From assembly GCA_039714075.1 (NCBI GenBank), contig JBDLKA010000040.1:1-28493 (forward strand): DNA of 28,493 nucleotides. The letters run 5' to 3'. Shown here piece after piece: positions 1-22,629 of the stretch. The DNA is from Candidatus Krumholzibacteriota bacterium. GTDB taxonomy: Bacteria; Krumholzibacteriota; Krumholzibacteriia; LZORAL124-64-63. Under the pieces are notes generated by a model that ran no database searches, was not told where the DNA came from, and saw only the letters and a program-made list of their open reading frames with translations. The translations under genes and the position numbers were made by a program. Positions within the stretch are counted from its first letter, which is position 1, and each line of letters opens with the position of its first letter.

Positions 1-1697
1 ATGGCCTGGCCGGTAAGCTGACTCGGCAGGTGGAGGTCGGTCACCTGGCCGACAAATTCCAGTTCCACCTCATCGGGTTCCAATTCTCCGGAGGCCTTTA
101 CCCGGATACCGGGCATGTCGATATCGAGGGTATCCAAACGGGCGGTCAGATACCGGAGACCGTGTTCCCTCAAGGCATCAAGATCCGTTTCGGCTGAACC
201 GGCGATCACGCCCTTGTCCATCCAGGGGCTCGAGCCAAGGTCCAGATGCAGGGCGCCCCGGGCCACAGGGGCCTCGTAGGCGCCGGTGACGGCCAGGTTT
301 CCCGACACGGACTCGAATTCCCCGTGCGGAAAATCCTCCGGCAGCCACGAGTGGAAATACGAAGACCCGGGCAACAGGAAACCGCAATCGAGACGGCCGG
401 TGTACCTGGGCCCGGCTCTGTCGAGTGCGGCCACCGCATCCAGACGGACCGGCCCCGTGTCCCGCCAGACGTCCCGCGACTGGGGATTCATCAGGGAGGC
501 CACCAGCCCGGGCAGGGTGCTGTCCGCCAGGGTGACCGCCAGATCCAGGCCGGCCTCTTCGGATCCCCAATCCCCGGAAGCCGCCACGGTCAGGCCGTGC
601 AGAGCGAGGTCCAGGGTATCCAGGTGTGCGGTGAGCACCTGGATTCCGTGGACCCTCATAGAGTCGATGTCCGCCTCGACGCCACCGGCGACCAGGCCGT
701 TTTCCACCCAGGTGTCCGAACCCAGATCCAGACGCAGGGTGCCTTTGGCCAAGGGATCGGTATAGCTACCGGCGACATCCAGGTGTCCCGTCACCGGCCC
801 GAACTCCTCGCAGGGAAAATCCTGTGGCAGCCAGGGACGGAAGGAAGCGGAGCCGGGCAGACCGAAGTCGCCGGCCAATTGTCCCGAAAATTCGCCGTCG
901 CTCCAATCGCCGCCGGCGGGAATTTCGAGTGACAATCCGAGACCCAGTTCCGCGACCGACACCTCCAGCACGGGCGCACCGGCGGTATCGCCGAGGGCGG
1001 CCAGGAACCGGGCGCCGACATGTTCGACATCAAGGGTGGCGGGAGCGGCATTGCCGGCGTCGGCCCGGCCGACCAGTTCCAGATCGCGGACGGCCATGCC
1101 GGGTGCCAGCCGGGCCCGGGCCACTGCCAGGTCGACTTTGGCCACGACGACCGACGGCATACCGGGCAGGCTGCCGGGTTGGAGGAAGGGCACCTCTCCG
1201 GGAGGTTCTTCGGTCAGCGTGGAGTCGGGACGAATCGTTGCCGCGGTGTCCTCGAAGGCCGCGGCCATGGCGGGAACATCAAGATTGCGGATTTCCAGAA
1301 GCAGGGAATCGACCCGCCCGTTCTTTTTTCTCAGGGCGTCCATATCCAGGGCAAGATCCAGCCTGGCCACATCGGCCAGGGTGTCGCCGGGCGCGGCTGC
1401 GGAACCCGTGACCCAGAGCACATCATCAAGGACGAGACGACCCAACGAAGGCCAGTTGGATTCCCCCACGGTGAGTCGGCCGGGCATGGCTTCATCGGCA
1501 AACCGGATACCCCAGCCCAACAGGGCGCCGCGGGTCTGGGGAATCAGGAGGACCAGGGCCAAAACGAGAATCAGACCAGTCAACAGGAGCAGGACCCAGG
1601 TCAGCATCCGGCGCACCAAGCGGAGATACCTCTTCCACGAGGGCGGTTTCCCCTCATGCCCGTCGGGCCGGTTTGGTTTCCTGATCACGCCTACCAT
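1..1697 (-). CDS. tamB: TamB/AsmA-like translocation and assembly module protein (3' end runs off the window)
   Basis: Not in the ORF track because it has no stop in the window. Hand translation is open from ATG 1697 (overlapping the tamA stop; GTG 1688 is an alternative) to the edge. Basic N-terminus, one TM anchor (MLTWVLLLLTGLILVLALVLLIP), then amphipathic beta-rich sequence. Directly downstream of a TamA-like gene. Confidence 0.8.
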   Translation of the reverse strand, partial: MVGVIRKPNRPDGHEGKPPSWKRYLRLVRRMLTWVLLLLTGLILVLALVLLIPQTRGALLGWGIRFADEAMPGRLTVGESNWPSLGRLVLDDVLWVTGSAAAPGDTLADVARLDLALDMDALRKKNGRVDSLLLEIRNLDVPAMAAAFEDTAATIRPDSTLTEEPPGEVPFLQPGSLPGMPSVVVAKVDLAVARARLAPGMAVRDLELVGRADAGNAAPATLDVEHVGARFLAALGDTAGAPVLEVSVAELGLGLSLEIPAGGDWSDGEFSGQLAGDFGLPGSASFRPWLPQDFPCEEFGPVTGHLDVAGSYTDPLAKGTLRLDLGSDTWVENGLVAGGVEADIDSMRVHGIQVLTAHLDTLDLALHGLTVAASGDWGSEEAGLDLAVTLADSTLPGLVASLMNPQSRDVWRDTGPVRLDAVAALDRAGPRYTGRLDCGFLLPGSSYFHSWLPEDFPHGEFESVSGNLAVTGAYEAPVARGALHLDLGSSPWMDKGVIAGSAETDLDALREHGLRYLTARLDTLDIDMPGIRVKASGELEPDEVELEFVGQVTDLHLPSQLTGQA

Positions 1698-3511
1698 GGG
1701 TATCCGATTCCGAAATGGAAGATATCGCGGGGCTGCCCCTCGATCCGGTTGGACACGTTCCAGCCGTAGCCGGCGCGCACCGGACCCAAAGGTGTCCGCA
1801 GATCAAGGTCCACGCCGATGGCCAGGGGGATCCCCGCCAGGGTGGCTTCCCGCGGTTTGTCCCACACCTGGCCGGCATCCGCGAAAACAGCCGTCTCGAG
1901 AATCCAGATCAGGGGGAACCGCACTTCCAGTCCCGCCAGGGCCACGAATTCCCCCCCGAGGGCGTTGCCGCCGGCATCGAGCGGTCCGAGTTTCCGCCGC
2001 CCGTAACCGCGGTGGGTGTTGTATCCGCCGGCATAGAATCGCCGGGTGGCCAATACCTCGACCGCCTCACCCAGCGGTGTCTCCCAACCCACCCGGACCC
2101 GGCCGGCGATGACGACGGGTTCCACAGGCGTACGGTAGACCGACGCATCCCCTTGAATGGCGACATAGGGAATTTCGGAAAAGAAACCCGGCGGGGCCAC
2201 CGTGAAGGAGGTCTTCAGATACCCCCCCGTTTCGGGAAACAGCGGGTCGTTCGTACGGTCCCATTTCACGTCGGTCCATATTTCCATCAGCCGGCCCTGG
2301 CTCTCCGGTACGTCCGACGCCTCGGGAATCACCCGGTTCACGTCGGTAAAGGAAAACGTGAGCCCGAGATTCCAGATGTTCCGGTTGCGCGGCCGGAAGG
2401 ACTGGATGAGTTCGACCCTGGATTCGTGGGAGAGGTAGGCGTCTTCGTCCTCGACCAGGAAACCCAGCCCGGCCCGCGTCCGCGCCCGGGGGGAAAGAAT
2501 CCCCAGCCAGTTGACGCCGGCTCCCGCGCCCAGCCGATGGGTGCCGACCACCCCGGCGACGTCGAAACCGACACCGTGTCCGAACAGGTTCCGGTGCCGC
2601 CACCCTCCCCTGACCAGCCAGGGGTTGTCCGAGAAGGTGCCCACGCCCGCTTCCAGCATTTTCATGCGGCCGTTTTCCAGATTGGCGACCAGTTTCAGCT
2701 CACCCGGACCGACGGGTTCGACTTCCAGGACCACCATGCTGAACAACTGGGTGCTGCGCAGATCGAGCGAGGCGTTGGAAATCAACTGGAGGGAATAGTC
2801 CACACCCGCCTCGATGTTCATGACCCTGCGGGCCACTTTCATCAGGTCGTCACTGCACCCGCGGATTTCAACCCGGGTAATCCGGTAGAATTCGCCGGGC
2901 GTCACCTCGAACAACACGGCCACCAGGCCCGGGCCCATGGGTTCGAGAGTGTAGGTCACCTCCACGGTGGCAAATCCCGAGTCGAGCAGGTGCTGTTTCA
3001 GATGGGAATGGGCCTCCACCACTTTCACATCGCTGAAGATTTCTCCCACCGTCAGGGTTTTATTGTCGGTGGTATCCGGAAAGTCGATCGCTTCAGGCCA
3101 ACCGTCATACTCGATCCTGCCGATCCGCACCGGATTCCCGGGCACAACCCGCAGGACAAGATCCAATTGCCTGGCCTCGGTCTCGGGAACGGCCACTGGT
3201 TCCACGGTGGCGGCGGGGTAACCGTTCTGGGCCAGGAACAACCGGATCCGGGCCAGATCCTCCGCCAGCGTCTTCACCGAAAAATCCGGACGCTGCATGC
3301 CGCCGAGAAGTTTCCATTTCCCGCTCTGGGCCAGGCCGCGTTGCAGGCCCCTCTCAAGCTCCCGGGGCATTCCCTCCACGGCAAAGGACTTAATCTTCCA
3401 GCCGTTGTAGGACTCCCATTCCCCGTTGCCCTGGGCCTGCGAAAAGCCCGCCGACATGCCGGTCAGCAGAATGGCGGCCACCATGACAAGATGGAGAGAT
3501 CGAAGGGTCAA
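1691..3511 (-). CDS. tamA: TamA/BamA (Omp85) family outer-membrane assembly protein
   Basis: Signal peptide, POTRA-like segments (LAQNGYPAATV, LLDSGFATVEV), Omp85 motif RFYAGGYNTHRGY, LRTPLGPVR, aromatic C-terminus FHFGIGYPW. Start moved from 3625 to TTG 3511 (GAGGA upstream); ATG 3484 is an alternative. Confidence 0.88.
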   Translation of the reverse strand: MTLRSLHLVMVAAILLTGMSAGFSQAQGNGEWESYNGWKIKSFAVEGMPRELERGLQRGLAQSGKWKLLGGMQRPDFSVKTLAEDLARIRLFLAQNGYPAATVEPVAVPETEARQLDLVLRVVPGNPVRIGRIEYDGWPEAIDFPDTTDNKTLTVGEIFSDVKVVEAHSHLKQHLLDSGFATVEVTYTLEPMGPGLVAVLFEVTPGEFYRITRVEIRGCSDDLMKVARRVMNIEAGVDYSLQLISNASLDLRSTQLFSMVVLEVEPVGPGELKLVANLENGRMKMLEAGVGTFSDNPWLVRGGWRHRNLFGHGVGFDVAGVVGTHRLGAGAGVNWLGILSPRARTRAGLGFLVEDEDAYLSHESRVELIQSFRPRNRNIWNLGLTFSFTDVNRVIPEASDVPESQGRLMEIWTDVKWDRTNDPLFPETGGYLKTSFTVAPPGFFSEIPYVAIQGDASVYRTPVEPVVIAGRVRVGWETPLGEAVEVLATRRFYAGGYNTHRGYGRRKLGPLDAGGNALGGEFVALAGLEVRFPLIWILETAVFADAGQVWDKPREATLAGIPLAIGVDLDLRTPLGPVRAGYGWNVSNRIEGQPRDIFHFGIGYPW

Positions 3512-3560
3512 TTCGGCAAATCCTCGGTGAGGGGTCGGGACAACGGCTCCAATCGCCTTC

Positions 3561-3589
3561 AGGATAATGCCCGGTCGGCGGCCTGTCCA
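3561..3589 (-). promoter_or_regulatory. Putative sigma70 promoter of tamA-tamB
   Basis: TGGACA-N17-TATCCT on the minus strand; supports a start downstream of 3560. Confidence 0.5.
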
Positions 3590-3618
3590 TGTCTCGGGTC
3601 TGCAGCGGCCATTCCGGG

Positions 3619-3647
3619 TCGCCACAAGCCGTGGCTCAGGTTATCAT
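3619..3647 (+). promoter_or_regulatory. Putative sigma70 promoter of the cysteine desulfurase gene
   Basis: TCGCCA-N17-TATCAT, back-to-back with the tamA promoter. Confidence 0.45.
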
Positions 3648-3689
3648 GGGGCCTGCCTTCCCGAACCCGACCAAATCCGAAAGGGCGCC

Positions 3690-4856
3690 ATGGGCACCAT
3701 CAACCAGGCCGATCCGATCTATCTGGACTACAACGCCACCACTCCGGTGGATCGTCGCGTGGCCGACGCCATGACACCCTACCTGCGGGAGCATTTCGGG
3801 AATCCCTCGAGCAGCCATGTCCTGGGTCAGCGCACCCGGGCCGCCGTGGAAAACGCGCGTCGCCAGGCGGCTTCCTTTTTGGGAGCCGAACCGGACGGCA
3901 TCATTTTCACCAGCGGTGGCACCGAAGCCAACAACCACGCCATCATCGGTGCGGCGACGGCGCGCCGTGACCGGGGCCGTCATATCGTGACCACGGCGGT
4001 GGAGCACCCGGCCGTCAGCGAAGTCTGCCGGCATCTCGAATCACGCGGCTTCTCCACCACTTATGTCCCGGTCGATGAAAATTGCCGTGTGGACCCCGAC
4101 CAGGTTGCCGCTGCCTGCAACGAGCAGACGGTTCTCGTATCGGTGATGCACGCCAACAACGAGGTCGGCACCCTGCAACCGGTGGCCGAGATTGCCGCGC
4201 AGGCCAGGCAGCGGGGTATACTCAGCCATTCGGATTGCGCCCAATCCGCGGGAAAAATTCCCGTGACCCTGGATGGCCTGGGCGTGGACATGATCTCGGT
4301 GGCCGGACACAAATTATACGGTCCCAAGGGGGTGGGCCTGCTTTGCCTGCGGCCCGGGCTGGAAATACCCAACCTCATGTTCGGTGCGGGACACGAAGGC
4401 GGACGTCGGCCCGGGACGGAAAACATCATGGAGATCGTGGGCCTGGGTGTCGCTTGTGAACTGGCGGCCGCCGACCTGGATCATGAAGGGCCCCGCCTGA
4501 CCGCTTTGCGCGACCGTCTTCAGACCGATTTGCTCACGGCCTTCCCTGAAGGCAGGGTCAACGGTCACCGGGAATTGCGCCTGCCCAACACACTGAGTTT
4601 CAGCGTGCCGGACGTCACCGCCTCGGCCATCATCGGGAATCTGCCGCAGGTGGCGGTATCCGCGGGCGCCGCCTGCCACGGGGACGGCGGGGTGACCATC
4701 TCCCATGTGCTGGCCGCCATGAACGTGAAGGAAAAATACGCTCTGGGAACGATCCGTCTCTCGGTGGGTCGGATGACGACGGAGCAGGATATCGACGCTG
4801 GTGCCGCCGCAGTCATCCTGGCCGTCAAGGCCGCCCGGAAGGAAACGGCCTGTTAA
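3690..4856 (+). CDS. Cysteine desulfurase (IscS/NifS-like, class V PLP enzyme)
   Basis: IYLDYNATTP, FGNPSS, FTSGGTEANN, MHANNEVG, AGHKLYGPKG (PLP Lys) and the SAGAACH catalytic Cys loop. Start ATG 3690 after AAAGGG. Confidence 0.95.
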   Translation: MGTINQADPIYLDYNATTPVDRRVADAMTPYLREHFGNPSSSHVLGQRTRAAVENARRQAASFLGAEPDGIIFTSGGTEANNHAIIGAATARRDRGRHIVTTAVEHPAVSEVCRHLESRGFSTTYVPVDENCRVDPDQVAAACNEQTVLVSVMHANNEVGTLQPVAEIAAQARQRGILSHSDCAQSAGKIPVTLDGLGVDMISVAGHKLYGPKGVGLLCLRPGLEIPNLMFGAGHEGGRRPGTENIMEIVGLGVACELAAADLDHEGPRLTALRDRLQTDLLTAFPEGRVNGHRELRLPNTLSFSVPDVTASAIIGNLPQVAVSAGAACHGDGGVTISHVLAAMNVKEKYALGTIRLSVGRMTTEQDIDAGAAAVILAVKAARKETAC

Positions 4857-4859: not shown

Positions 4860-5321
4860 TCAGGATTTATTATCCGGCATGGAGGGCTTCAGGGTCTCCA
4901 ACTGGGCCCGCAGGGTCGGGCAGGGATTTTCCTCGGACAGGATCTCGGCCAGGGAGGTTCCTTCAAAGGCCCTTTGCACCATGGCCATGGCCTGATCAAG
5001 TCGGTTGTGCAAGGGGCAAAGATCAGAGCTGTGCCCTTCCAGGTCCAAGGGGCAGGCTTCAATCCTCTTGTAGGGACTGACCGCGTTCAGGACTTCCAGC
5101 ATATTCAGGTCCCCCGGCTCCTTCGCCAGGACGAAACCGCCTCTCAATCCCCGCGTCGAATGAACCAGACCGGCCCTGACCAGGGATTGAAGCACCTTGG
5201 ACAAATAGCTTTGGGGAACCTTCATGGTTTCGGCGATCTGGCGGGTGGTCATGGGGCTACCGTCCCCGGCACCCAGAGCCACCATGGCACGCATCGCATA
5301 TTCAATGGTAAGGGAAAACAA
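4860..5321 (-). CDS. Rrf2 family transcriptional regulator
   Basis: EYAMRAM, YLSKVLQSLVRAGLVHSTRGLRGGF winged HTH, CPL...H...LCPLH. TTG start with GAAGGTGG upstream. Confidence 0.95.
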   Translation of the reverse strand: MFSLTIEYAMRAMVALGAGDGSPMTTRQIAETMKVPQSYLSKVLQSLVRAGLVHSTRGLRGGFVLAKEPGDLNMLEVLNAVSPYKRIEACPLDLEGHSSDLCPLHNRLDQAMAMVQRAFEGTSLAEILSEENPCPTLRAQLETLKPSMPDNKS

Positions 5322-5391: not shown

Positions 5392-5416
5392 TACAAGGAC
5401 AAATGGAGCCTGTCAA
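5388..5416 (-). promoter_or_regulatory. Sigma70 promoter of the Rrf2 gene
   Basis: TTGACA-N17-TAAATT; the -35 overlaps the stop codon of the upstream beta-barrel gene. Confidence 0.7.
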
Positions 5417-6123
5417 CGACCGAAGGAGAACCCCACCCTGACGATGAAATAGTCCCAGTTGTAGGTCATCTTGCCGGCAAGGGGCGGAAGGTTGACGGAA
5501 TCGAAACGATTGTAGGTGTACTCGCCGACCAGTTCGATATTGTTCATCTTGAAACCAAGGCCGCCGCTGTAGGCGGGAGTGTTGACGCTGGTTTTGAAAA
5601 ACCCGATGGTCTGCATTTCGTCCCGGTAGATATTGTGGGCCAGGGCGATGCCACCGGTCAGGAAAGGCCGGAAGGAAGATCGCGGACTGCCCGTGAACAC
5701 ATGGAAATCCAAACCGTATTTGTAGGTGGACGCCCGGACCGTATAGGCCAGGTTCTGGCTGCCCTCGTAGTCGGTGACGCCCGAGGCCGAGCCCATCCTG
5801 ATGTAGTGGAAAGCGGGTGATACGGCGAAATAATCGCTCAGATAACCACGGATGCGGAAACCGACTTCATATCCGGTGCCCTGTCCCAAGCCCCGCACAT
5901 TGGCCATGGGGTCTTCACTGACCAGATGAAGTTCATCCTTCTGGTCACCCATGGGTTCTGCAAGGCCCCCTTCCACGAGAAACTCATGACTGGACTGACC
6001 GCGCTGGTACTGTGACCCGCCATGGCCAAGAACAATTCTAGCCTCGGCCTCGGACACCTGGGACATGACTCCCAAGAGTATCAGCAGCACGAAGTATGCG
6101 GTTCCGTTCGTCAGGCGTTTCAT
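5413..6123 (-). CDS. Outer-membrane beta-barrel protein (OmpA/Opacity-like small barrel)
   Basis: ATG 6123 with GGAGGAGG RBS. Signal peptide ending AEA, alternating beta-strands (RPFLTGGIALA, YSGGLGFK), C-terminal beta-signal IVRVGFSF. Confidence 0.85.
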   Translation of the reverse strand: MKRLTNGTAYFVLLILLGVMSQVSEAEARIVLGHGGSQYQRGQSSHEFLVEGGLAEPMGDQKDELHLVSEDPMANVRGLGQGTGYEVGFRIRGYLSDYFAVSPAFHYIRMGSASGVTDYEGSQNLAYTVRASTYKYGLDFHVFTGSPRSSFRPFLTGGIALAHNIYRDEMQTIGFFKTSVNTPAYSGGLGFKMNNIELVGEYTYNRFDSVNLPPLAGKMTYNWDYFIVRVGFSFGR

Positions 6124-6195
6124 GAGCTTCCTCCTCCGGTGAATTAGGCCGGATCGAAAGGGGGCCTGCATGGACTCTCAATCCATCAGTGAATA

Positions 6196-6211
6196 TGCAG
6201 GGAGGATGCCC
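6196..6211 (-). promoter_or_regulatory. Putative sigma54 -24/-12 promoter
   Basis: Minus strand GGGCATCCTCCCTGCA has exact GG-N10-GC spacing and resembles TGGCAC-N5-TTGCA; about 70 nt upstream of the beta-barrel start. Confidence 0.55.
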
Positions 6212-6246
6212 GTTGGCGGGACCAATACAATAAAGTTTTAAGCCAT

Positions 6247-6270
6247 TTATTTGCAGATGGTTGCAAATAA
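6247..6270. promoter_or_regulatory. Inverted repeat TTATTTGCA-N6-TGCAAATAA in an AT-rich tract with an IHF-like site
   Basis: Perfect 9-bp arms. Minus-strand AATAAATGGCTTA (6239-6251) has one mismatch to the IHF consensus WATCAANNNNTTR. Confidence 0.5.
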
Positions 6271-6318
6271 TAATCAACGTAATTTACGAACCTGAAGGGC
6301 CTGTGGCGGCCCACCGCT

Positions 6319-6356
6319 GTGCCCCCAGTAGGACACTCGCGGACCAAAAAGGACAG
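6319..6356. promoter_or_regulatory. Putative bEBP upstream activating sequences
   Basis: GTGCCC-N6-GGACAC palindrome at 6319-6336, with a second GGACA half-site exactly 20 bp further (6351); about 110-145 bp upstream of the -24 element. Confidence 0.45.
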
Positions 6357-6382
6357 CTGCCCGGAGTTCATCTCCGGGCAGC
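6346..6382 (-). terminator. Intrinsic terminator after the TPR-bEBP gene
   Basis: 11-bp stem GCTGCCCGGAG/CTCCGGGCAG C with 5-nt loop, followed on the minus strand by TGTCCTTTTT. Confidence 0.7.
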
Positions 6383-6399
6383 CGCACAAGGTTGACCGC

Positions 6400-8976
6400 T
6401 CAATTGGTGGTCACATTGGTCACGGTTTTACCCGCGATGCCGAGTTTTTCCATCTGCCGGTACAGGGTGCTGCGGCTGACGCCCAACAGTCGGGCCGCCT
6501 GGGCGCGGTTGCCGTCGGTCTCGGCCAGGGCCAGCAGGATACGGGACCGGCCCGTTTCCATTTTATCGTGCTGACGTGGTCCGCGGCCCGGCACGACCGT
6601 CAATTGGACGTGGCCCGGATCGGTCGCCCCGGAAATATTTCCCGGACCCTGGAAACACCAGACCCGATCATCGCCACCCCCGACTTCGACCTGGACACGG
6701 CCCCGGGACTCGACCTGGACCTTGGCCTGTCGGGCCACCATGGCGATTTCACGCACGTTGCCCGGCCACTCGTACCCGAGCATCAGGTCCAGGCTTTCCT
6801 GGTCGAAGAAATCCCGCAGCTCGACCGGCTGTCCCGACGCCAGGGTCAGGAAGTGGCGCAGCAACGGCAGGATGTCTTCGGTCCGGGATGTGATCGGAGG
6901 CAGTTTGAGTTCCAGGATCTTCAACCGGTAATACAGATCCGCGCGGAATTTCCCTTCGGCCACCAGCTTCTGCAGATCGGCGTTGGTCGCGGCGACCAGA
7001 CGGATGTTGGTCCGTCGCTGGGAAGGATCACCAATGGCCTGGTAGGTACCGTCCTGCAACAGGCGCAGCAGTTGCGGCTGCAGTTCCAGGGGCAGGTCGC
7101 CGATTTCATCCAGGAACAGGGTCCCGCCGTCGGCCTTGGCCGCCAGGCCGATGCCGTCGCGCTCCGCGCCGCTGAACGAGCCCCGCGTGTGGCCGAAAAA
7201 TTCCCGGGCAAAAATCGTCTCGGGAATGGCGGAAACATTGACGCTCACCAGTTCGGCCGACCGTCGGCCGCTCTGGCGGTGAAGGCGCCGCGCGAAAAGT
7301 TCCTTGCCGGTCCCGGTTGCCCCGGTGATCAGAACCGGTTCATCCGAGTCGGCAAAAGCGTCCGCCAACTGGATGAGATCCCGCATTCCGGGAGACACAT
7401 GGATGATGGGGCCGGCCTCGGCATGTTTCGGCCGGTTGCCGTGCAGGCGATCGGTGGCGACGATCATGCGCTCGGTCTTTTCCAGATCGGCCCGGCGGCC
7501 GGAAATGAGGGAGACCAGCTTGCGGGCCGCCAGGATCCAATGATCCACTTCCATCTTCAGGAACAGGTCCAGGGCGGACATGGACGCCTTCCAGGCCTCG
7601 TCCAGAAGGGTGGCCGGGTCCTGGCACAGGCCGCTGTCCAGCCGGGCCAGACGCGCCCGGGCCAGGGTCATCTGGGCCAGGCCCAGTTCATGGCGAGCCC
7701 CCACGCTCCGGAGCAGGCGTGTCGCTTCGACCGCGTGATGGGCCGCGGAATCGAGATCCCCGAGTCCCAGCAGGTTCTCCCCGAGGACACGGCGGACCAC
7801 GCCTTCCTCGTAACGATCACCCTGCCGGCGCGTCTTGGTCAGGGCGCTGCCCAGAACCGTCACCGCTTCGGAATGGCGGCCGAGTTTTTCCAGACACTCT
7901 CCCTGCCGGCGCAGGACTTCCATGACGATGTCGCCGTCCGGGGCAATGCTGCGGCCGATGGCCAGGGCGCGGCTGTAGTAGCGGCGGGCCTTGTCGATGG
8001 CGCCTTCGTCCCGGCAAACGTCACCCATGAACTCCAGGGCCAGGGCTTCCTCGCGCGAAAGCATCAACTGGTTCGCCACTTCGTAGGCCGTCATCAGCCG
8101 GTCGCGGGCCGCTTCGAAATGCCGCTGCAGACGCAGGGTGTTGCCCTGGGCAATGGCGCACCGGCACAGGCTGACCTTGGCGTCGACTTCCTTCAACAGA
8201 CGCGCGGCCGCATCCAACTCGGCCAAGGACCGGCCGAGGTGGCCCTGCTTGTAGAAGGCGATGCCGATGTTCATCCGGTTGCCGCCCATGTTCTTGAACA
8301 TGCCCAACTGCGTGTGCAGGTCCAGGGCGCGCCGGAACCACAGTTCGGCTTTCGGGTAATCGGCCGTCTTGAAGGTGATGACGCCCAGCAGGTTGGCGGT
8401 GCGGGCACATTCAAAATCACGATTCAGGACCTTGAAAATGGAATAGGCGGCTTCGGTATCATCCCGGGCACGGTCAGGATCGCCCAGATGGGTATAGGCC
8501 AACCCCCGCAAATACAGGAAATCCGCGATCACCGGTGGCAGGTTGTGACGGTGCGCATCGATGTACCGGGTGGTCTCGTCCACCACCAGAACGTAATCTC
8601 CCCGCTTGCAGGCGAAAGCCAGCTGGACGGCATCCAGTTCCGGTGATTCTTCCGCCACCATGCCCCACTTGCCGGCGGAGGCCTGCAGCACCTCGAAATC
8701 ATCGAACCTTTCCAGCTGGAAAAGATTCTTCGCGCACAGAACCACGGCGTCCTGCAACTTGGGAGCCGAGGGGTCGGGCACTAGGGACAACGGGGGCCGT
8801 TCCCCCGCGTCGACCTCGTCCAGGCAGCGCCGGGCGGCTGCGAGAGAGGCCTCATAGTCCTCTTTCAAATGTGCCTGCCAGGCTGTCTCCCAGGTCGAGG
8901 GATCAAGAAGGAGATCCTTCAGGGGACCGTCGCCAGAGCGAGCGACGATTCCAGGGCGAACTTTCTCAGGGCGCAT
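6400..8976 (-). CDS. Sigma54-interacting transcriptional regulator with N-terminal TPR array, AAA+ domain and Fis-type HTH
   Basis: Start ATG 8976 (GGGGGA RBS), 858 aa. About 7 TPR-like repeats (e.g. ANLLGVITFKTADYPKAELWFRRAL), Walker A GATGTGKE, GSFSGA loop, Walker B LFLDEIGD, RADLYYRL, WPGNVRE, HTH GNRAQAARLLGVSRSTLYR. Confidence 0.93.
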   Translation of the reverse strand: MRPEKVRPGIVARSGDGPLKDLLLDPSTWETAWQAHLKEDYEASLAAARRCLDEVDAGERPPLSLVPDPSAPKLQDAVVLCAKNLFQLERFDDFEVLQASAGKWGMVAEESPELDAVQLAFACKRGDYVLVVDETTRYIDAHRHNLPPVIADFLYLRGLAYTHLGDPDRARDDTEAAYSIFKVLNRDFECARTANLLGVITFKTADYPKAELWFRRALDLHTQLGMFKNMGGNRMNIGIAFYKQGHLGRSLAELDAAARLLKEVDAKVSLCRCAIAQGNTLRLQRHFEAARDRLMTAYEVANQLMLSREEALALEFMGDVCRDEGAIDKARRYYSRALAIGRSIAPDGDIVMEVLRRQGECLEKLGRHSEAVTVLGSALTKTRRQGDRYEEGVVRRVLGENLLGLGDLDSAAHHAVEATRLLRSVGARHELGLAQMTLARARLARLDSGLCQDPATLLDEAWKASMSALDLFLKMEVDHWILAARKLVSLISGRRADLEKTERMIVATDRLHGNRPKHAEAGPIIHVSPGMRDLIQLADAFADSDEPVLITGATGTGKELFARRLHRQSGRRSAELVSVNVSAIPETIFAREFFGHTRGSFSGAERDGIGLAAKADGGTLFLDEIGDLPLELQPQLLRLLQDGTYQAIGDPSQRRTNIRLVAATNADLQKLVAEGKFRADLYYRLKILELKLPPITSRTEDILPLLRHFLTLASGQPVELRDFFDQESLDLMLGYEWPGNVREIAMVARQAKVQVESRGRVQVEVGGGDDRVWCFQGPGNISGATDPGHVQLTVVPGRGPRQHDKMETGRSRILLALAETDGNRAQAARLLGVSRSTLYRQMEKLGIAGKTVTNVTTN

Positions 8977-9346
8977 TGTAATCCCCCACGCCAAGATCGA
9001 GCAGGCCGAGATCGGTATTGTCCACGACAATGATCCGGAGGATGACGATCCCACCCAGGTATTCGGGGACCACCAGTACCCGGAGCCGGCTGGAGCTGAA
9101 TCCCAGCAGGTCGAAGAATCGGGTCGTTGTGGAATCATTGTGGATGTCGCTTCCGCCACCGCCACCGCCGCCCACATCATTGGTGTCCAGGGGATCACCT
9201 TCACTGCCGTCGCCGGTGCCGCCGCCGCCCAGACTCATTTCCTTCTTGGCCAAAGCGCCCGTCGGAGCTAAAAAGCTCGCGACCAGGAAAGCGGGAACAA
9301 GCAACGACACGAGACGGCCAGACAATTTGGAGATCAATTTTTTCAT
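8966..9346 (-). CDS. Small secreted Gly-rich protein (126 aa), unknown function
   Basis: GGGAGGGAG RBS before ATG AAA AAA. Sec signal peptide ending ALA (residue 33). Stop overlaps the bEBP start by 11 bp. Confidence 0.8.
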   Translation of the reverse strand: MKKLISKLSGRLVSLLVPAFLVASFLAPTGALAKKEMSLGGGGTGDGSEGDPLDTNDVGGGGGGGSDIHNDSTTTRFFDLLGFSSSRLRVLVVPEYLGGIVILRIIVVDNTDLGLLDLGVGDYNAP

Positions 9347-9470
9347 GACTCCCTCCCAAGGGATTTGACCGGACCGTCGAGATTTAAGCTTATCCCGAGG
9401 GTTGAAATACACTAACAATCCGGGCAGGTCTATCAGGGGACGTTTTCTGAAGCTACGGAATTGGCGGAGG

Positions 9471-9509
9471 AAAGAAAAGAGGGCCGGTCCACTTTATGGT
9501 CCGGCCCTC
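9471..9509 (-). terminator. Intrinsic terminator after the receiver-domain gene
   Basis: GAGGGCCGG...CCGGCCCTC stem followed on the minus strand by TTTTCTTT. Confidence 0.75.
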
Positions 9510-9528
9510 GAAATCAAGCTGGGGGTTG

Positions 9529-10041
9529 TCAGGCGTGAACCGGGACCCACCGGGACAGTGCTTCGCGAAGGACTTCCGGTTCAAACGGCTTGTAGAGGAA
9601 GTCGTTGGCCCCCGCACGCTGGAATTCGTCAAGGCGGTCTCCGGGGTTGAACGAGGTCACGATCAGGATGGGTACGGGGCGAATGCGGTAGGGATGCTCG
9701 GGTGGAAGTTCGGCCTCCAGTTCGCGGATGGCCCGGCTGGCTTCCATTCCGTTCATGCCCGGCATGTTCATGTCCATGAGGACCAGATCGTAGCGTGCTT
9801 CAGGACAGCCGTCCCGGAACAGGGCCATCGCGTAATCCCCGGTGGTGGCGGGATCCACCTGGCAACCCATGCGTCCCAGCAAGCGGCTGCCCACGGCCAG
9901 GTTGACGGGTGCGTCGTCCACCAGCAGGATGCGCAGGGGGTGGGCGTCACGATCCACGCCGGGCACGTCGATTTTCCGGTCGCGAATGGATCCCGAACGG
10001 CGGCGGGGCAAGGGAGGATGATCTCTGAATCCTGGACACAT
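9529..10041 (-). CDS. Stand-alone response regulator receiver protein
   Basis: ILLVDD, DLVLMDMNMPGMNG (phospho-acceptor Asp), FLYKP. Start chosen at ATG 10041 (GAGG upstream); start uncertain. Confidence 0.88.
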   Translation of the reverse strand: MCPGFRDHPPLPRRRSGSIRDRKIDVPGVDRDAHPLRILLVDDAPVNLAVGSRLLGRMGCQVDPATTGDYAMALFRDGCPEARYDLVLMDMNMPGMNGMEASRAIRELEAELPPEHPYRIRPVPILIVTSFNPGDRLDEFQRAGANDFLYKPFEPEVLREALSRWVPVHA

Positions 10042-10151
10042 GGCGAACCTCGGTTTCCGGTCAGGGGAATAAGTTGCCTGCCCTGGAAATTTCGGCCGCA
10101 AACGGCGCTTTTTTAGTCGGAAATGAGGCTCGCAACACCGGCCGCACAACC

Positions 10152-10169
10152 GTTGCAATATTTTGCAAC
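10152..10169. promoter_or_regulatory. Palindrome GTTGCAA-N4-TTGCAAC in a divergent promoter region
   Basis: Perfect 7-bp arms, upstream of an extended -10-like TGgTACATT (10190-10198) for the AKR gene. Confidence 0.45.
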
Positions 10170-10237
10170 TACCGCCTGACCCGGACTCGTGGTACATTGT
10201 GCGGATTGTGAATCCCCAAATCCCTCAAGGAGTCGCC

Positions 10238-11268: not shown

Positions 11269-13422
11269 ATGAGGAAGGTCGTTCTGATCATGGCGATGAT
11301 GAGTATTCTCGGCGGTTGCGCCGATGACGGGTCCGGCGGCGGATCCACCGATACGGCGGCCACCACTGCCGAAACAGTTCAGAATCCGTTTTTCGAAGAG
11401 TGGGACGGACCCTTCGGGACCCCTCCTTTCGATAAAATCGAGATCGCGCACTACGAACCCGCCATGATGCGGGGCATGGCCGACCACAAGAAAGAGATCG
11501 CGGCCATCGCCCGCCATCCCGAATTCCCGAACTTCGCCAACACCATCGAAGCCATGGATTCCGCGGGTGCCCTGCTGACCAGGGTCGCCAACGTCTTCAG
11601 CGCCATGAACGGCACCATGACCAACGACGAGATGCAGGCCATCGCCAAGCGTCTGGCTCCTTTGCGCTCCCAGCACCGGGACGAGATCCTGTTGAACGCC
11701 GAATTGTTCGCCCGGGTCGACGCCGTCCACCAGCAGCGCGGCAAGCTGGGCCTGGAACCGGAACAGGATCGCCTCCTGACCGAGACCTGGAAACGTTTCG
11801 TGCGCGGCGGCGCCAACCTTTCCGAGATCGACAAGGACAAGCTGAAGACGCTGAACGAAGAGCTGTCCGTGCTGTCGCTGCAGTTCGGGGAAAACGTCCT
11901 GAAGGAGACCAACAAGTTCGAAATGGTCATCGAGAAGCAGGAGGACCTGGCGGGACTGTCGGCGGCCTCGATCGAAGCGGCGGGTGAAGCGGCCGCCAAA
12001 CGGGGGCATGAAGGCAAATACGTCTTCACCCTGCACAAGCCCAGCCTGATCCCCTTCCTGCAGTACAGCCCCAATCGCGAACTGCGGGAAAAGATGTTCA
12101 AGGGCTACACCAACGTCGGCGACAACGGCGACGAACTGGACAACAACGCCATCCTGGCGCGCATGGCTTCCCTCCGGGTGGAAAGAGCGAACCTGCTGGG
12201 CTTCCCCAGCCACGCCCACTACGTGCTGGACGACAACATGGCCAAGAATCCCGACAACGTCTACGAACTGCTGAACAAGCTGTGGACCCCGGCCCTGGAC
12301 CGGGCCAAGGGCGAGGCCGCCGAGTTCCAGAAGATGATCAACAAGGAGAACAGGAAGGCCGGCCGGTTCGAACTGGCGGCCTGGGACTGGTGGCACTACG
12401 CCGAAAAGGTGAAGAAGGCAAAGTACGATCTGGACGAGGAAATGGTGCGCCCCTACTTCGAACTGGAGAACGTCCGGGCCGGGCTGTTCGACACCGTCAC
12501 CAGACTCTTCGGCATCACCTTCACCGAGCGCCACGACATCCCCGTCTATCAGGAAGACGTGAAGGTCTACGAGGTAAAAGAAGCCGACGGCAGCACCGTC
12601 GCCATCTGGTACAGCGACTACTTTCCGCGCGAAAGCAAGCGCGGCGGCGCCTGGATGAGTTCCTTCCGCAAGCAGTACTACGACAGTAACCAGCGGGTCG
12701 TCCCGGTCATCTACAACGTGGGCAACTTCACCAAACCCACCGCCGACACGCCCGCCCTGCTGAGCGCCGACGAGGTGGGCACCATGTTCCACGAGTTCGG
12801 CCACGCCCTGCACGGCATGCTGTCGGACTGCCGCTACCGGACCCTGAGCGGCACCTCGGTGGCCCGCGACTTCGTCGAACTGCCCAGCCAGGTGATGGAG
12901 AACTGGGCCTTCGAACCCGAGGTCCTGGCCACCTACGCCAAGCACTACCAGACGGGCGAAGTGATCCCCGCCGCTCTGGTGGAGAAACTCGAGAAGAGCA
13001 AGCACTTCAACCAGGGTTTCGAAACCACCGAATACCTGGCCGCGAGTTTCCTGGACATGGACTGGCACACCCTCGAGACGACCGCCGAAGCGGACGTCGA
13101 CACCTTTGAAATCGAATCCATGGGCCGCATCGGGTTGATTGGCGAAATCGTTTCCCGGTACCGCAGCCCCTACTTCCGTCACGTGTTCGCCGGAGGTTAT
13201 TCTTCCGGGTACTATTCCTACGTGTGGGCCGAAGTGCTGGACGCCGACGCGTTCGAGGCTTTCAAGGAAGCGGGTGACATTTTCGATCCCGCAACCGCGA
13301 AGTCCTTCAGGGACAACATCCTGGCCCGCGGCGGGTCGGAGGAGTCCATGGACCTGTATCTGAAGTTCCGGGGCAAGGACCCGGAGATTGGTCCCCTGTT
13401 GGCAAGGAAAGGCCTGGACTGA
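11269..13422 (+). CDS. dcp: M3A metallopeptidase (peptidyl-dipeptidase Dcp-like), predicted lipoprotein
   Basis: HEFGH zinc motif, KRGGAWM, DFVELPSQVMENW, YSSGYYSYVWAEVLDAD; lipobox ILGGC at residue 17. Confidence 0.93.
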   Translation: MRKVVLIMAMMSILGGCADDGSGGGSTDTAATTAETVQNPFFEEWDGPFGTPPFDKIEIAHYEPAMMRGMADHKKEIAAIARHPEFPNFANTIEAMDSAGALLTRVANVFSAMNGTMTNDEMQAIAKRLAPLRSQHRDEILLNAELFARVDAVHQQRGKLGLEPEQDRLLTETWKRFVRGGANLSEIDKDKLKTLNEELSVLSLQFGENVLKETNKFEMVIEKQEDLAGLSAASIEAAGEAAAKRGHEGKYVFTLHKPSLIPFLQYSPNRELREKMFKGYTNVGDNGDELDNNAILARMASLRVERANLLGFPSHAHYVLDDNMAKNPDNVYELLNKLWTPALDRAKGEAAEFQKMINKENRKAGRFELAAWDWWHYAEKVKKAKYDLDEEMVRPYFELENVRAGLFDTVTRLFGITFTERHDIPVYQEDVKVYEVKEADGSTVAIWYSDYFPRESKRGGAWMSSFRKQYYDSNQRVVPVIYNVGNFTKPTADTPALLSADEVGTMFHEFGHALHGMLSDCRYRTLSGTSVARDFVELPSQVMENWAFEPEVLATYAKHYQTGEVIPAALVEKLEKSKHFNQGFETTEYLAASFLDMDWHTLETTAEADVDTFEIESMGRIGLIGEIVSRYRSPYFRHVFAGGYSSGYYSYVWAEVLDADAFEAFKEAGDIFDPATAKSFRDNILARGGSEESMDLYLKFRGKDPEIGPLLARKGLD

Positions 13423-19763: not shown

Positions 19764-21083
19764 TTAACCCGGGAGGGTTAGGCGACCGTTCAATTCCGGC
19801 AGGACCTCCGATGCCTTCAGCTCGCGGCCCACGGTCTGTAGATGGTGCCTGCGGGCACGTTTCAAACCCCCACCCAGGGTCCGTATCTCCGTGAACTTCT
19901 CGCCCCCGGCCAGGCAATGCGCCAACGCCCCGGCCGCCGCCCGGGTGGCATCGTCGCCATGGTCATGCAAAAAGAGATCGAGTCGGGCCGGCCACATACC
20001 GGGATCGAGGCGATCGAGCCAACGCATCATGGCACCGGAGATGGCCGCGGGATCGCCCCCACGCAAAGCCGACTCGAGTCGCTTGAAGTAAGCCGCCTCC
20101 GATTCCCGCCGGAGATTTCTCCACCTGCGCCACCGGGGATGCACGACACGACCCAGTCCGAATCCCAAGGCGACGATTGCCGTGACCGCAACACCGATCA
20201 ACAGGAGGCCACGTGATCCGGCAGGTTGCTCTTCAACCGCAACCGAAGCTGCCTCCTGAACAGGCTCCCCGACCACCACCAAGGCCAGGCCGGGCAATTC
20301 GATTTGCCGCAGCGTCTGTGCTTTGATGTTCCACCACGGCAGCACGATGTCGGGCAGGATTACTTCACCGGGTTGCTCGAATACATAGGTGACGGTTTCC
20401 ACCCGTTCACCGCGCAGGGCGCCGCGATTGGTTTCGTCGGCTACCGACGGCTCGCCGGGGTAGACGCCCAGGCCCTCCCGTTCGGGATGCTGCATGGGCG
20501 GGAACGCCATGGCGGAGACATCTTCGGCACGCAGGGTCACGGTGCGCGTGATGGCGTCCCCCAGATCCACGGTGTCCGGTTGGGCTGACCAGACCTGGCC
20601 GGCGGAAAGACCGGTGGTGCTGATCAGACCCCGGATTCCTTCGGCCCCCGGCGGGACCTTGCAGGTCACATGCGTGGGCGGGGTTCTGAGTTCCCGCCGG
20701 GTCTCCGCGGGCTGCGCCCCCCACTGCTTCACGGCAACCGTAACCGGCATGGCGGGGATATCCACCCGGCCCGCCCGCTGGCAATAGAGGGAAATCTCGT
20801 ACCTTTGACCCATGAGGGCCTTGCCGCCGATGGTCTCGTTCAGACGCGTCCCCTGGCTTTCGGTTCGCAAGACGTAGGCGCCGGGAATTTCCAGATCGCC
20901 CGCTTTGGCGATCTGCGCCCATCCGTCGGCGGCCAGGACATCGACATGCAACAGAACGCGCTGCCCGACCCAGGCCACCTCCGGAGTCATCGAGGTGCGC
21001 AGAACGATATCCTCCGCGGAAAAAGCGAGGCCGGAACCGAGCATCAGGACGGCCAGGACAATTGCCGGTGTGAAAGATTTCAT
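19764..21083 (-). CDS. batD: BatD-family protein
   Basis: Signal peptide, AWVGQRV, GDAITRTVTL, LPWWN, late TM helix; last gene of the MoxR/VWA operon. Confidence 0.8.
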   Translation of the reverse strand: MKSFTPAIVLAVLMLGSGLAFSAEDIVLRTSMTPEVAWVGQRVLLHVDVLAADGWAQIAKAGDLEIPGAYVLRTESQGTRLNETIGGKALMGQRYEISLYCQRAGRVDIPAMPVTVAVKQWGAQPAETRRELRTPPTHVTCKVPPGAEGIRGLISTTGLSAGQVWSAQPDTVDLGDAITRTVTLRAEDVSAMAFPPMQHPEREGLGVYPGEPSVADETNRGALRGERVETVTYVFEQPGEVILPDIVLPWWNIKAQTLRQIELPGLALVVVGEPVQEAASVAVEEQPAGSRGLLLIGVAVTAIVALGFGLGRVVHPRWRRWRNLRRESEAAYFKRLESALRGGDPAAISGAMMRWLDRLDPGMWPARLDLFLHDHGDDATRAAAGALAHCLAGGEKFTEIRTLGGGLKRARRHHLQTVGRELKASEVLPELNGRLTLPG

Positions 21084-21721
21084 TGCGCGTCACCGCCCGC
21101 ATTCTCCGACCGCGTGGAGAACTGGTAGGCGAACTTGGCCCGCAGGAAATCGGCCGGTTTGGTCTGCACCTGCCGCAACCAGATCGAGCGAAGTTCCTCG
21201 TCGCTCATCTGGTCGCCGCCCTCGGTCTGTTCCTCTGTCGACGACGACTTCTTCTTGTCCGAGAAAACGATCTCGTCGGGCTCCAAACGGCCGCCGGTCA
21301 TCTCGCCGCCTTCGGTGTCGAGCAGGGCCGCCCGCGCGGCGGCAATATCCCGGTTGACCCGCGCGGATTCCCAACCGGCCTCGAGTTCCAGTGCGCGATC
21401 GTACCTGGCCACCGCCTCGTGGTACCGACCCATCAGGACCAGGGCGTTGCCCTGGTTGAAGGCGGACTCGGCGGTGTCGAATCCCGAGAACACACCCGCC
21501 GCCTGTTCGAACTCGCCCTGCCTGAAGAGCGAAACCCCTTGCCACAAGGGATCGCGGAAAGTCTCGGCCGCGGCCGCGAAGTCGCCGGCCGCGAAAAGGC
21601 GGTGGGCCCGCTGGTCGGGGGTCAACAACGGACAGGCGTTCCTCAGCAGGCAGTAGAACACCACCGCCACCACTCCCAGGCCCAGGACCATGAACACGCC
21701 GCCGGATCGCCGGATCTTCAT
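21080..21721 (-). CDS. TPR protein (BatC-like / split C-terminal half of BatB)
   Basis: LTPDQRA, FRDPLWQGVSLFRQGEF, FNQGNAL, WLRQVQTKPADFLRAKF; ATGA overlap with the upstream stop fixes the start at 21721. Confidence 0.85.
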   Translation of the reverse strand: MKIRRSGGVFMVLGLGVVAVVFYCLLRNACPLLTPDQRAHRLFAAGDFAAAAETFRDPLWQGVSLFRQGEFEQAAGVFSGFDTAESAFNQGNALVLMGRYHEAVARYDRALELEAGWESARVNRDIAAARAALLDTEGGEMTGGRLEPDEIVFSDKKKSSSTEEQTEGGDQMSDEELRSIWLRQVQTKPADFLRAKFAYQFSTRSENAGGDAQ

Positions 21722-22629
21722 GACACGACCCACCCTCTGCGGGACCATGCGAGCCCGACAAGCGCGATCAGCGGCAGCACGGCATAGCCGGCATCCCGCC
21801 ACCGCTCGTCTCCCGCCGCCGTGGGCGCGGCGCGAAAATCCGTCTGCGCCCTCGCGGCAATCTCGTCCACGTCAGCCTGGTCGATGGTCATGGGCACCAC
21901 CGCAGCGTGGCGCATCCGCGCAACCTGTTTCAAACCGTCGTCTGCCGGGACGTTCGGCGGCCGGACCGAAAGGAACTGCACCGGAAGGCCTGGAGCGGCC
22001 TCTTCGACGGCGCTCACCTGGTTCGGTGAAACGGCATCCGCCACCACCAGCACCGAGCCCGGCGCACCGGCGCGTTCGAGCACCCTTTCGGCCAGTTGAA
22101 GTGCTTCACCCAGCGCGTCGCCGTCCCGGGGCATCAATTCCGGTGAGAGTTCGTTCGCCATGGCGGTCAGAATGCGGCTGTCCCGGGTCAGCGGCATGAC
22201 CAGGTGGGCGCTGCCGCTGTAGACGATGAGTCCGGTGGTCGCGCCTTCCCGCCTTTCCAGAAGGTCCTGCAGCTTGTGTTTGGATCGTTCGAGGCGCGAC
22301 GGTTGCACGTCCGTGGCGTTCATGGTCGAGTTGGCCTTCAGGAGAACCACCAGCCCTGCCTGGTCGTCCGCGAAGGGTGACGGCTCACGTTCCCAGGCCG
22401 GTCCGGCCAGCGCCAAGATACAAACCGCCCCGAGGATGAACGCGAGATGGACCGGCCGCAGCCGACGTCGTTTCCGTTCGCCCACGAGTAAATGATCGAG
22501 CAGGTGGGGATCGATCATCCGCCGCCAGGCCGAGGTCTGATCCTGGACGCGCCAGAGACCCCACCAGACCAGGACGACGGGCACCAGGCCCCACAGCCAC
22601 AGCGGACGCAGAAAGTGGAACTCAGCCAT
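21718..22629 (-). CDS. VWA domain membrane protein (BatB-like, degenerate MIDAS)
   Basis: MAEFHFLRPLWL, ALAGPAW, DVQPSRLER, GSAHLVMPLTRD; the MIDAS position reads KANSTM. Confidence 0.88.
   Translation of the reverse strand: MAEFHFLRPLWLWGLVPVVLVWWGLWRVQDQTSAWRRMIDPHLLDHLLVGERKRRRLRPVHLAFILGAVCILALAGPAWEREPSPFADDQAGLVVLLKANSTMNATDVQPSRLERSKHKLQDLLERREGATTGLIVYSGSAHLVMPLTRDSRILTAMANELSPELMPRDGDALGEALQLAERVLERAGAPGSVLVVADAVSPNQVSAVEEAAPGLPVQFLSVRPPNVPADDGLKQVARMRHAAVVPMTIDQADVDEIAARAQTDFRAAPTAAGDERWRDAGYAVLPLIALVGLAWSRRGWVVS

Follow-up and report, generated by a model that had tools for sequence, protein, structure and literature searches.

The contig JBDLKA010000040.1 of a Candidatus Krumholzibacteriota bacterium, 28,493 nt in length (the whole stretch of DNA analysed, referred to below as the window), carries between positions 5413 and 9346, on the minus strand, genes for a small exported protein, for a sigma-54 activator of the bacterial enhancer-binding protein (bEBP) type, and for a barrel-like outer-membrane protein. 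The activator is a sigma-54 activator with a new arrangement of the input, a tetratricopeptide repeat (TPR) superhelix, and together with the small exported protein it makes a module conserved lineage-wide. A preliminary description of this locus had taken the pair for a peptide-signalling system of the RRNPP type; each element that it had marked was found in place or a few bases away. The module does not belong to the RRNPP family. Tentatively, we favour the reading that it is a lineage-specific (Krumholzibacteria-type) module reporting on the envelope, with the TPR-bEBP gated by its exported partner.

The activator gene and its domains are located as follows.

6400-8976, minus strand: gene for the sigma-54 activator (bEBP), 858 aa, with Pfam matches to TPR families, Sigma54_activat, AAA_lid_14 and HTH_8
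7477-8976, minus strand (taken as the domain): N-terminal TPR superhelix, residues about 26-499, by Pfam and AlphaFold2
6907-7404, minus strand: AAA+ sigma-54 domain, residues 525-690 (PF00158, E 1.3e-59)
6442-6543, minus strand: HTH_8, residues 812-845 (Pfam)

The protein has the features of a bEBP, that is, an AAA+ sigma-54 domain with its motifs, a C-terminal Fis-type helix-turn-helix, and a target carrying an upstream site and a -24/-12 element. The motifs are GTGKE at residue 555 and LFLDEIG at 620, Walker A and Walker B, respectively, and GSFSGA at 599, a variant of the GAFTGA loop; homologues carry GAFTGA or GSFTGA at this site. Full-length members of the family are 817-864 aa long, and are annotated in the sources just as 'NtrC family response regulator/TPR repeat protein'. 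No REC, GAF or PAS domain was found in the bEBP by Pfam, and no transmembrane segment was detected, the highest 19-residue hydropathy being 0.98. The TPR array as the sole input of the activator, as proposed in the preliminary description, is thus upheld by Pfam and hydropathy, but the array ends near residue 500 and not at about 550. Input domains of other bEBPs include REC, GAF, PAS, V4R and FHA, all gating the same AAA+/HTH_8 architecture, whereas the input here is a 500-aa TPR superhelix. The rpoN gene was not found by Pfam within the 28.5-kb window.

The AlphaFold2 model of the TPR domain is of high confidence (predicted local distance difference test, pLDDT, 91.1; predicted template modelling score 0.86), and consists of 23 helices in 11 repeats that wind into a superhelix of the LGN/Pins type. 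Among 25 sequences the domain shows a mean column identity of 66%, with the invariant blocks KNMGGNxxNxG, REEALALE, ARRxYSR and APxGDxVxEVxxRQG. The Asn-bearing helix motifs pointed out before are both present, ANLLG at residue 194 and MNIG at 235, and N195, N229, N233 and N236 are invariant in 25/25 sequences; the usual TPR_12 consensus has Asn at that helix position. In profile searches of solved structures, the best natural matches were Pins (5a7d_B, E 3.7e-11) and LGN, followed by kinesin light chain. By fold, the top matches were LGN/Pins complexes with NuMA, Inscuteable and Frmpd4 peptides (6hc2, 3sf4, 4a1s; E about 1e-10 to 1e-9), and Rap of phage phi3T appeared at rank 33 (E 3e-7). As modelled, the domain is of a class that holds long extended peptides, and is not specifically RRNPP-like. 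LGN/Pins (GPSM2), the closest solved structures by both profile and fold, share with it the long superhelix of TPR_12 type, and accommodate extended disordered peptides of NuMA, Inscuteable, Frmpd4 or Afadin in the inner groove. They differ in being eukaryotic polarity proteins of 16-20% identity, unrelated to transcription, and this analogy is one of fold class only that says nothing about the ligand here.

For the search of related loci, the TPR part was used as a query, and 94 of the 119 proteins among the matches listed carried PF00158 (rows P0018-P0110 and P0115); the distant members P0108-P0110 show 28-42% identity. Where named in the sources, these TPR-bEBP relatives are Krumholzibacteria-type proteins from metagenome-assembled genomes (MAGs). 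A TPR-only alignment was then scanned against one genome per species, yielding 26 loci with TPR identities of 51-87% to the window protein; 19 of them are titled Krumholzibacteria, -ia or -ota. These loci and the window together are the 27 sources referred to below. Directly upstream of the bEBP gene and on the same strand, a homologue of the small gene was detected in 26/26 loci by the small-protein profile (E 1e-63 to 4e-7). The expectation that a small gene with a signal peptide should consistently stand beside homologues of this activator was borne out in these loci. A homologue of the barrel gene follows downstream on the same strand in 12/26 loci; in the remaining 14 the sequence stops within or just after the activator or phosphorelay genes, and all counts for the barrel gene refer to the 12 loci plus the window. 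The neighbourhood is syntenic as a whole, with a gene for family M3 peptidase in 24/27 sources, and according to the gene maps and Pfam the TPR-bEBP is the sole sigma-54 activator found across these loci.

The gene maps were made with length-based and GC3-based callers, and only calls backed by Pfam or homology were relied upon. Opposite the bEBP gene, on the plus strand (window 6319-8646), there is an antisense open frame of 775 aa, an artefact of the G+C-rich sequence. Both callers preferred this frame or its counterparts in several sources, and automatic annotation may miscall the region. At L024 (6001-8498) and L012 (3667-5157), the longest frame after the small gene is not the one in which tblastn matches the activator, which suggests frameshifts or assembly errors in those MAG records.

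The gene for the small exported protein is organized as follows.

8966-9346, minus strand: open reading frame (ORF) of the small exported protein, 126 aa, with ribosome-binding site GGGAGGGAG
9248-9346, minus strand: signal peptide, residues 1-33, with a basic n-region, a hydrophobic core and a cut between ALA and KK, by eye
9176-9199, minus strand: codons of the motif G50-D-P-L-D-T-N-D57 (family GDPxDxND), inside the disordered segment
9020-9085, minus strand: codons of a hydrophobic beta-hairpin, residues 88-109 (AlphaFold2 strands 88-97 and 100-109; pLDDT of the block 83-85)

A Sec-type N-terminus, with basic n-region, hydrophobic core and AxA-type site, was recognized by eye in the window and in 25/26 loci; in L024 there is no Met at the aligned place. 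In the 25 related loci with a clear start the protein is 119-135 aa long. The mature form, about 93 aa (residues 34-126), is acidic and Gly-rich (pI about 4.1-5.4; 11-22 Gly). Since the ratio of nonsynonymous to synonymous substitution (dN/dS) is 0.21-0.69 in 12/12 pairs, the small gene is a real coding gene; the TPR domain gave 0.08-0.26 for the same pairs, and by this measure the small protein is the faster-evolving of the two by a factor of 2.5-4. It is conserved along its whole length, and past Met1 the only invariant residues in 36/36 sequences are G50, D51, P52, D54, N56 and D57. The AlphaFold2 model (pLDDT 61) consists of a signal helix, a disordered segment at residues 38-83 that includes the motif and Gly runs, and the hairpin at 88-109, the sole part of the mature protein to be confidently folded. 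Hydropathy also peaks in the hairpin (Kyte-Doolittle value over 19 residues 2.26 at residue 90), and its polar turn PExxGG is conserved. A membrane helix was considered for this hydrophobic C-terminal stretch and was rejected in favour of the beta-hairpin, the turn having conserved charged residues.

Relatives of the small protein include 17 close homologues, and a profile search of 1.84 billion representatives gave 180 clusters of 50% identity at E<=1e-3. The best 150 of the 180 clusters are proteins of 81-192 aa, all standing alone, and no fused form was found among them. No known family could be assigned: Pfam gave no match at E<=10, the sole sub-threshold match in NCBIfam (E 0.04) was confined to the signal peptide, and an atlas look-alike search returned no usable match. 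Membership of the CpxP/Spy/ZraP type was likewise not detected, with no Pfam or NCBIfam match outside the signal peptide.

The boundaries, the leader and the junction of the pair are defined by the following features.

9529-10197, minus strand: receiver-only response-regulator gene (Pfam Response_reg), upstream of the pair
9466-9509, minus strand: intrinsic terminator hairpin and U-tract, ending the receiver gene and marking the 5' boundary of the pair
9447-9462, minus strand: conserved box AATTCCGTAGCTTCAG, some 100 nt ahead of the small gene, recognizable by eye in the majority of the 27 upstream regions
9414-9427, minus strand: leader box 1, CTGCCCGGATTGTT (consensus TGTCCGGATTGTT), conserved in an alignment of 13 leaders
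9369-9379, minus strand: leader box 2, CGACGGTCCGG, with a GGTCC core invariant or nearly so in 13/13 aligned leaders
8966-8976, minus strand: 11-nt overlap between the small gene and the bEBP gene, whose ATG at 8976 lies inside the last small-gene codons
6353-6385, minus strand: intrinsic terminator past the bEBP gene, a 14-pair stem and then a T-run (consensus scan)

The receiver gene, the small gene, the bEBP gene and the barrel gene are all on the minus strand. That two terminators bracket the pair was confirmed by RNA folding. The upstream hairpin (9466-9509; segment folded, 9466-9512) has a folding energy of -25 kcal/mol (z -4.94), none of 200 shuffled sequences folding equally well, and is also visible in L001, L003, L004 and L006. 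The downstream hairpin (6353-6385; segment folded, 6340-6392) has -30.4 kcal/mol (z -5.09), and is likewise present in L001, L003 and L004. The consensus scan for terminators listed only the latter, not the hairpin at 9466-9509.

A leader of some 115 nt precedes the small gene. Within 9369-9462 of the minus strand, the boxes AATTCCGTAGnTTCA, TGTCCGGATTGTT and CGACGGTCCGG occupy the same places in L001-L008, L012, L014, L019 and L020. The box at 9447-9462 is a candidate promoter element of the housekeeping type; the sigma-54 pattern was found in 0/27 upstream regions of the operon, this box included. Leader box 1 and leader box 2 have GTCCGG in common, and TGTCC of box 1 recurs as the half-site in the palindrome ahead of the barrel gene. 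The three leader boxes may represent a promoter plus an operator for autoregulation. A structured RNA in the leader was rejected, as the consensus energy of 13 leaders was -1.9 kcal/mol and a double change was seen in 1/6 pairs; a search of positions 6100-9560 against Rfam at E<=1 gave nothing.

At the junction, the small gene of Sec type overlaps the start of the bEBP gene, as described before, the ATG at 8976 standing 11 nt before the small-gene end. A GGAG-type ribosome-binding site is located 5-8 nt upstream of this ATG, within the small gene. The small gene is closed by NAT GNN NNN TRR, thus giving the 11-nt overlap, in 25/27 sources (24 loci and the window), and by TGATG in L016 and L018. 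The overlap and the internal ribosome-binding site indicate, at the level of sequence, translational coupling of the two genes, and the pair is read as a two-gene operon from a predicted non-sigma-54 promoter. The same arrangement shapes the C-terminus of the small protein, where the conserved pattern E-[AG]-x-[HNYD]-[AV]-x is what the translation-start signals of the bEBP gene (ribosome-binding site and ATG) encode when read in the small-gene frame. The last residues themselves differ over the family (AP, AD, VR, AR, AQ, AH, AE, VE, EK), with Ala-Pro-stop in the window clade. The C-terminus was rejected as a mature peptide or as a ligand of the TPR 'carboxylate clamp' type, its codons doubling as the translation start of the activator.

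The pair is followed by the barrel gene and its control region, as listed below.

5413-6123, minus strand: gene for the barrel-like outer-membrane protein, 236 aa, with signal peptide (MKRLTNGTAYFVLLILLGVMSQVSEAEA)
6196-6211, minus strand: -24/-12 sigma-54-type promoter GGGCATCCTCCCTGCA, 73 nt before the start codon (ATG) of the barrel gene
6250-6267, minus strand: palindrome TTTGCAACCATCTGCAAA with perfect arms, in the A+T-rich spacer that separates upstream site and promoter
6318-6335, minus strand: upstream palindrome TGTCCTACTGGGGGCACA (family TGTCC-N6-9-G[GC]ACA), a candidate bEBP site

The sigma-54-type promoter and the barrel gene that the preliminary description had placed after the pair were both located there, the latter as a candidate barrel gene. 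For the product of 5413-6123, no Pfam family was found even at E<=10, and PorT/SprT gave only a weak match (E 5e-4, 19 bits vs a cut-off of 125); its look-alikes by features (score 0.97) are clusters carrying OMP_b-brl or OmpW. The -24/-12 match by itself is not above chance, as 99 matches with three mismatches were counted in the window against 110 expected; it was rejected as standalone evidence and accepted for its conservation alone. GGCA[CT]-N5-NTGCA is kept in 13/13 barrel upstream regions (12 loci and the window), at 62-87 nt before the start codon, and GGCA and TGCA are invariant columns in the 12/12 that were aligned, where the mean identity is 48%; L024 also has the element. The upstream palindrome, about 120 nt upstream of -24/-12 in most of these regions, is present in its strict form in the window and eight loci (L001, L003, L004, L008, L015, L017, L022, L024), and in looser variants, by eye, in L007, L020 and L023. 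Its GTCC is nearly invariant in the alignment, and L019 is ambiguous. The A+T-rich spacer is also present in other loci; the TTTGCAACCATCTGCAAA palindrome within it is not conserved, and might play a role in DNA bending. Palindrome, spacer and -24/-12 element together have the layout of a classic enhancer-dependent promoter.

On these grounds the mechanism that we tentatively prefer may be outlined. The bEBP would bind the TGTCC-N-GCACA palindrome via its HTH_8, opening the sigma-54 promoter in front of the barrel gene. The ATPase of the activator would be set by the occupant of the TPR groove, the likeliest candidate being the disordered acidic segment of the co-translated partner. Since the small protein is exported, contact would have to take place either before export or after return of a fragment, and the acidic segment might be caught on its way out or taken back as a fragment from the periplasm. 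The activator would thereby monitor how its partner fares in export or in the periplasm, a cell-autonomous signal of envelope status and not a cell-to-cell code.

Gating of the activator by its exported partner is supported by several observations. The pair is kept in 26/26 loci at TPR identities of 51-87%, the 11-nt overlap in 25/27 sources and the -24/-12 element of the target promoter in 13/13 regions, and the nearest folds, LGN/Pins, hold extended peptides. Because an eight-residue motif stays invariant within a fast-evolving disordered chain, it is likely to be a short linear motif with a conserved reader. The TPR domain is the obvious candidate for this reader, being strongly conserved and encoded on the same mRNA right behind the small gene. 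A code between cells is disfavoured, since the motif is invariant lineage-wide and there is no sigma-54 autoinduction site (0/27). Pairwise distances of the small protein and the TPR domain were correlated (r 0.77; 19 sources), and the partial correlation was 0.59 net of the M3 peptidase, whose distances were used as a proxy for species divergence; this partial r was reached by 0/2000 permutations. The correlation gives weak support for a link between the small protein and the TPR domain, as linked genes share history.

Several points weigh against gating by the partner. The signal peptide puts the small protein across the inner membrane from the TPR domain. From the synteny around the pair (M3 peptidase in 24/27), adjacency partly reflects common descent within one lineage, and a mirror-tree correlation can stem from shared history or from linked rates. 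Kinase and receiver genes without an output domain flank the pair in 20/26 loci and in the window, and are another possible input to the TPR domain; in some loci two phosphorelay genes sit between the bEBP gene and the barrel gene. No gene for a peptide importer of the Opp type was found by Pfam within the window. Finally, the assignment of the barrel promoter to this bEBP, and not to one from elsewhere, comes from proximity only.

Input from a phosphorelay is a serious rival, though we hold it somewhat unlikely. In this case the TPR domain would receive its signal from a phosphorylated receiver-only protein, and the small protein would be a purely periplasmic accessory, which could modulate the sensor of a HAMP-GAF kinase or partner the barrel via its hairpin. 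ZraP and CpxP modulate sensor kinases in their own systems, and Rap proteins bind Spo0F. In 20/26 loci and in the window, the pair is accompanied by components of a multi-step phosphorelay, namely a HAMP-GAF histidine kinase (about 1050 aa), a receiver-kinase (about 520 aa) and receiver-only proteins, all of which lack a DNA-binding output. Examples from Pfam and the gene maps are the following, in the coordinates of each locus.

L002, 8294-13075: phosphorelay genes
L009, 2455-4482 and 7635-12439: phosphorelay genes
L007, 6323-8306: phosphorelay genes
L019, 7005-8946: phosphorelay genes
L026, 5-1609 and 4766-9300: phosphorelay genes
Window, 9529-10197, minus strand: the receiver-only gene listed above

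The count of flanked loci, with HisKA/HATPase and receiver genes lacking a DNA-binding output beside the pair, was taken from the gene maps, and Pfam was used to check 12 such proteins and the window receiver. The TPR-bEBP is the sole DNA-binding protein of the cluster, and has no receiver domain of its own, as would suit an activator fed by these proteins; the exported small protein with its isolated hydrophobic hairpin would also need a partner. Against this, L015, L017 and L022, in which both flanks are covered, have no such gene on either side, and the small gene is present in 26/26 loci (three further loci end too early to judge). Moreover, the small gene is coupled to the bEBP gene and not to a kinase gene, and the small protein is unlike the known periplasmic accessory families in Pfam, NCBIfam and the atlas.

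It is unlikely that the two genes are only co-expressed, with the shared operon and the overlap being historical and the TPR domain sensing something unrelated. All loci belong to one lineage with synteny over many genes, and an overlap, once formed, is hard to undo. However, the overlap is kept down to 51% TPR identity despite rearrangement of neighbour genes, and without a joint function there would be little reason for coupling an exported protein 1:1 to a regulator of low abundance. An invariant linear motif also calls for a conserved partner that reads it, and the partial distance correlation argues for a link.

True communication of the RRNPP type is still more doubtful. A cut peptide, for example around EGDPLDTND, would leave the cell, re-enter through both membranes and switch the bEBP via the TPR groove. 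It likewise appears quite improbable that the small protein, or its GDPxDxND fragment, is the direct ligand of the TPR groove once back in the cytoplasm. PMC10075063 gives for RRNPP systems a propeptide of 21-50 aa in validated cases (10-100 aa as detector range), a receptor of 250-500 aa as criterion (285-473 aa is also given), TPRs located C-terminal to the effector domain, candidates with an N-terminal TPR being discarded, as well as a Sec-exported propeptide and directly neighbouring genes. Compared with these five features as given there, the pair in the window agrees in two, the Sec-type signal (by eye) and the adjacency of the genes (-11 nt). It departs in three: the small protein is 126 aa (119-135 aa over the family), the receptor is 858 aa, and its TPR is N-terminal. 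What stands of the RRNPP-like pair proposed before is the adjacency, the signal peptide and a TPR superhelix of a peptide-holding kind, but not the size of either protein or the order of the domains.

The likeness to Rap-Phr, NprR-NprX, PlcR-PapR and AimR-AimP is that of a cytoplasmic TPR regulator encoded beside a small gene with a Sec signal, overlapping or nearly touching, and with a distantly similar TPR fold, as seen from the phi3T Rap match. In contrast to these systems, the output here is an AAA+ sigma-54 motor with HTH_8, the small gene precedes the receptor gene, and the host is a diderm outside Firmicutes, without an importer gene in the window. RRNPP peptides are usually located at the C-terminus of the propeptide. 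Conservation of the small-protein C-terminus is not a sign of a mature peptide here, because these codons also have to supply the translation start (ribosome-binding site and ATG) of the overlapping bEBP gene. The small protein is conserved over its whole length with one invariant motif, in place of a diversifying short mature peptide, and has not split into specificity groups. There is one copy per locus in conserved chromosomal synteny, a sigma-54 autoinduction promoter was found in 0/27, and passage of the outer membrane would be needed both ways. The regulated outer-membrane barrel could, as a speculation, serve peptide traffic.

A secretion monitor, in which stalling of a force-sensitive nascent chain near the stop codon sets the frequency of bEBP initiation, as for SecM, MifM and VemP, is very improbable: the ORF has an N-terminal export signal, ends atop the bEBP ribosome-binding site and ATG, closes with Ala-Pro-stop in the window clade, and its hydrophobic hairpin might occupy the exit tunnel at termination, but its last residues vary over the family and the downstream gene encodes a regulator rather than a secretion factor.

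Other known systems resemble parts of the module. In ZraP/ZraSR, CpxP/CpxAR and PspA/PspF, a small protein encoded by a neighbouring gene sets the activity of the regulator; ZraR and PspF are sigma-54 activators, and ZraP and CpxP are periplasmic. The genes for ZraP, CpxP and PspA are targets of their own regulators, and ZraP and CpxP act on the membrane kinase and PspA on the AAA+ domain. The module described here differs from these in the lack of sequence similarity by Pfam, NCBIfam and the atlas, the co-translation with the activator from a predicted non-sigma-54 promoter, and the TPR input. In FlgM/sigma-28, IpgC/MxiE with IpaB/C, and ExsE-ExsC, a partner of the regulator is exported and transcription reads the state of export; IpgC is a TPR protein. 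These systems depend on type III or flagellar export, not Sec, and include no sigma-54 activator. Full-text searches of a limited library turned up no description of a sigma-54 activator gated by TPR, of a connection between RRNPP and sigma-54, or of a bEBP always co-translated with an exported partner; papers on Krumholzibacteria had no bearing on this.

As the module is conserved over an uncultured lineage and has a clearly marked target promoter, its three parts could be reassembled in a host with sigma-54. Gating of the activator by the partner, if real, would give a cytoplasmic transcription motor a new means of sensing envelope status. Should a returning peptide be the ligand, the bEBP would be the first peptide-gated sigma-54 activator, extending RRNPP-type signalling to diderms; it would be the first RRNPP-like circuit in a diderm outside Firmicutes, made of unrelated parts, and the barrel might serve the peptide traffic. 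If neither holds, the locus still provides a new orphan family of small exported proteins (180 clusters) and a sigma-54-controlled outer-membrane protein of Krumholzibacteria.

Beyond the locus, the window contains the following genes.

11269-13422, plus strand: family M3 peptidase (Pfam E 4.5e-131), with a lipoprotein-like N-terminus MRKVVLIMAMMSILGGC
4860-5321, minus strand: Rrf2-family regulator, after the barrel gene
3567-4856, plus strand: class-V aminotransferase, cysteine desulfurase-like, after the Rrf2 gene
1691-3625: Omp85/POTRA protein gene, which then follows
19764-26839, minus strand: Bat/MoxR-type cluster, with AAA_3 MoxR ATPase, DUF58, DUF4381, VWA, TPR and BatD-like proteins
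27937-28009, minus strand: tRNA gene

The order of the genes from the barrel gene to the Omp85/POTRA gene is the same in several loci, and the presence of Omp85 in the window agrees with a diderm host. The tRNA gene was the sole Rfam match in the window at gathering thresholds.

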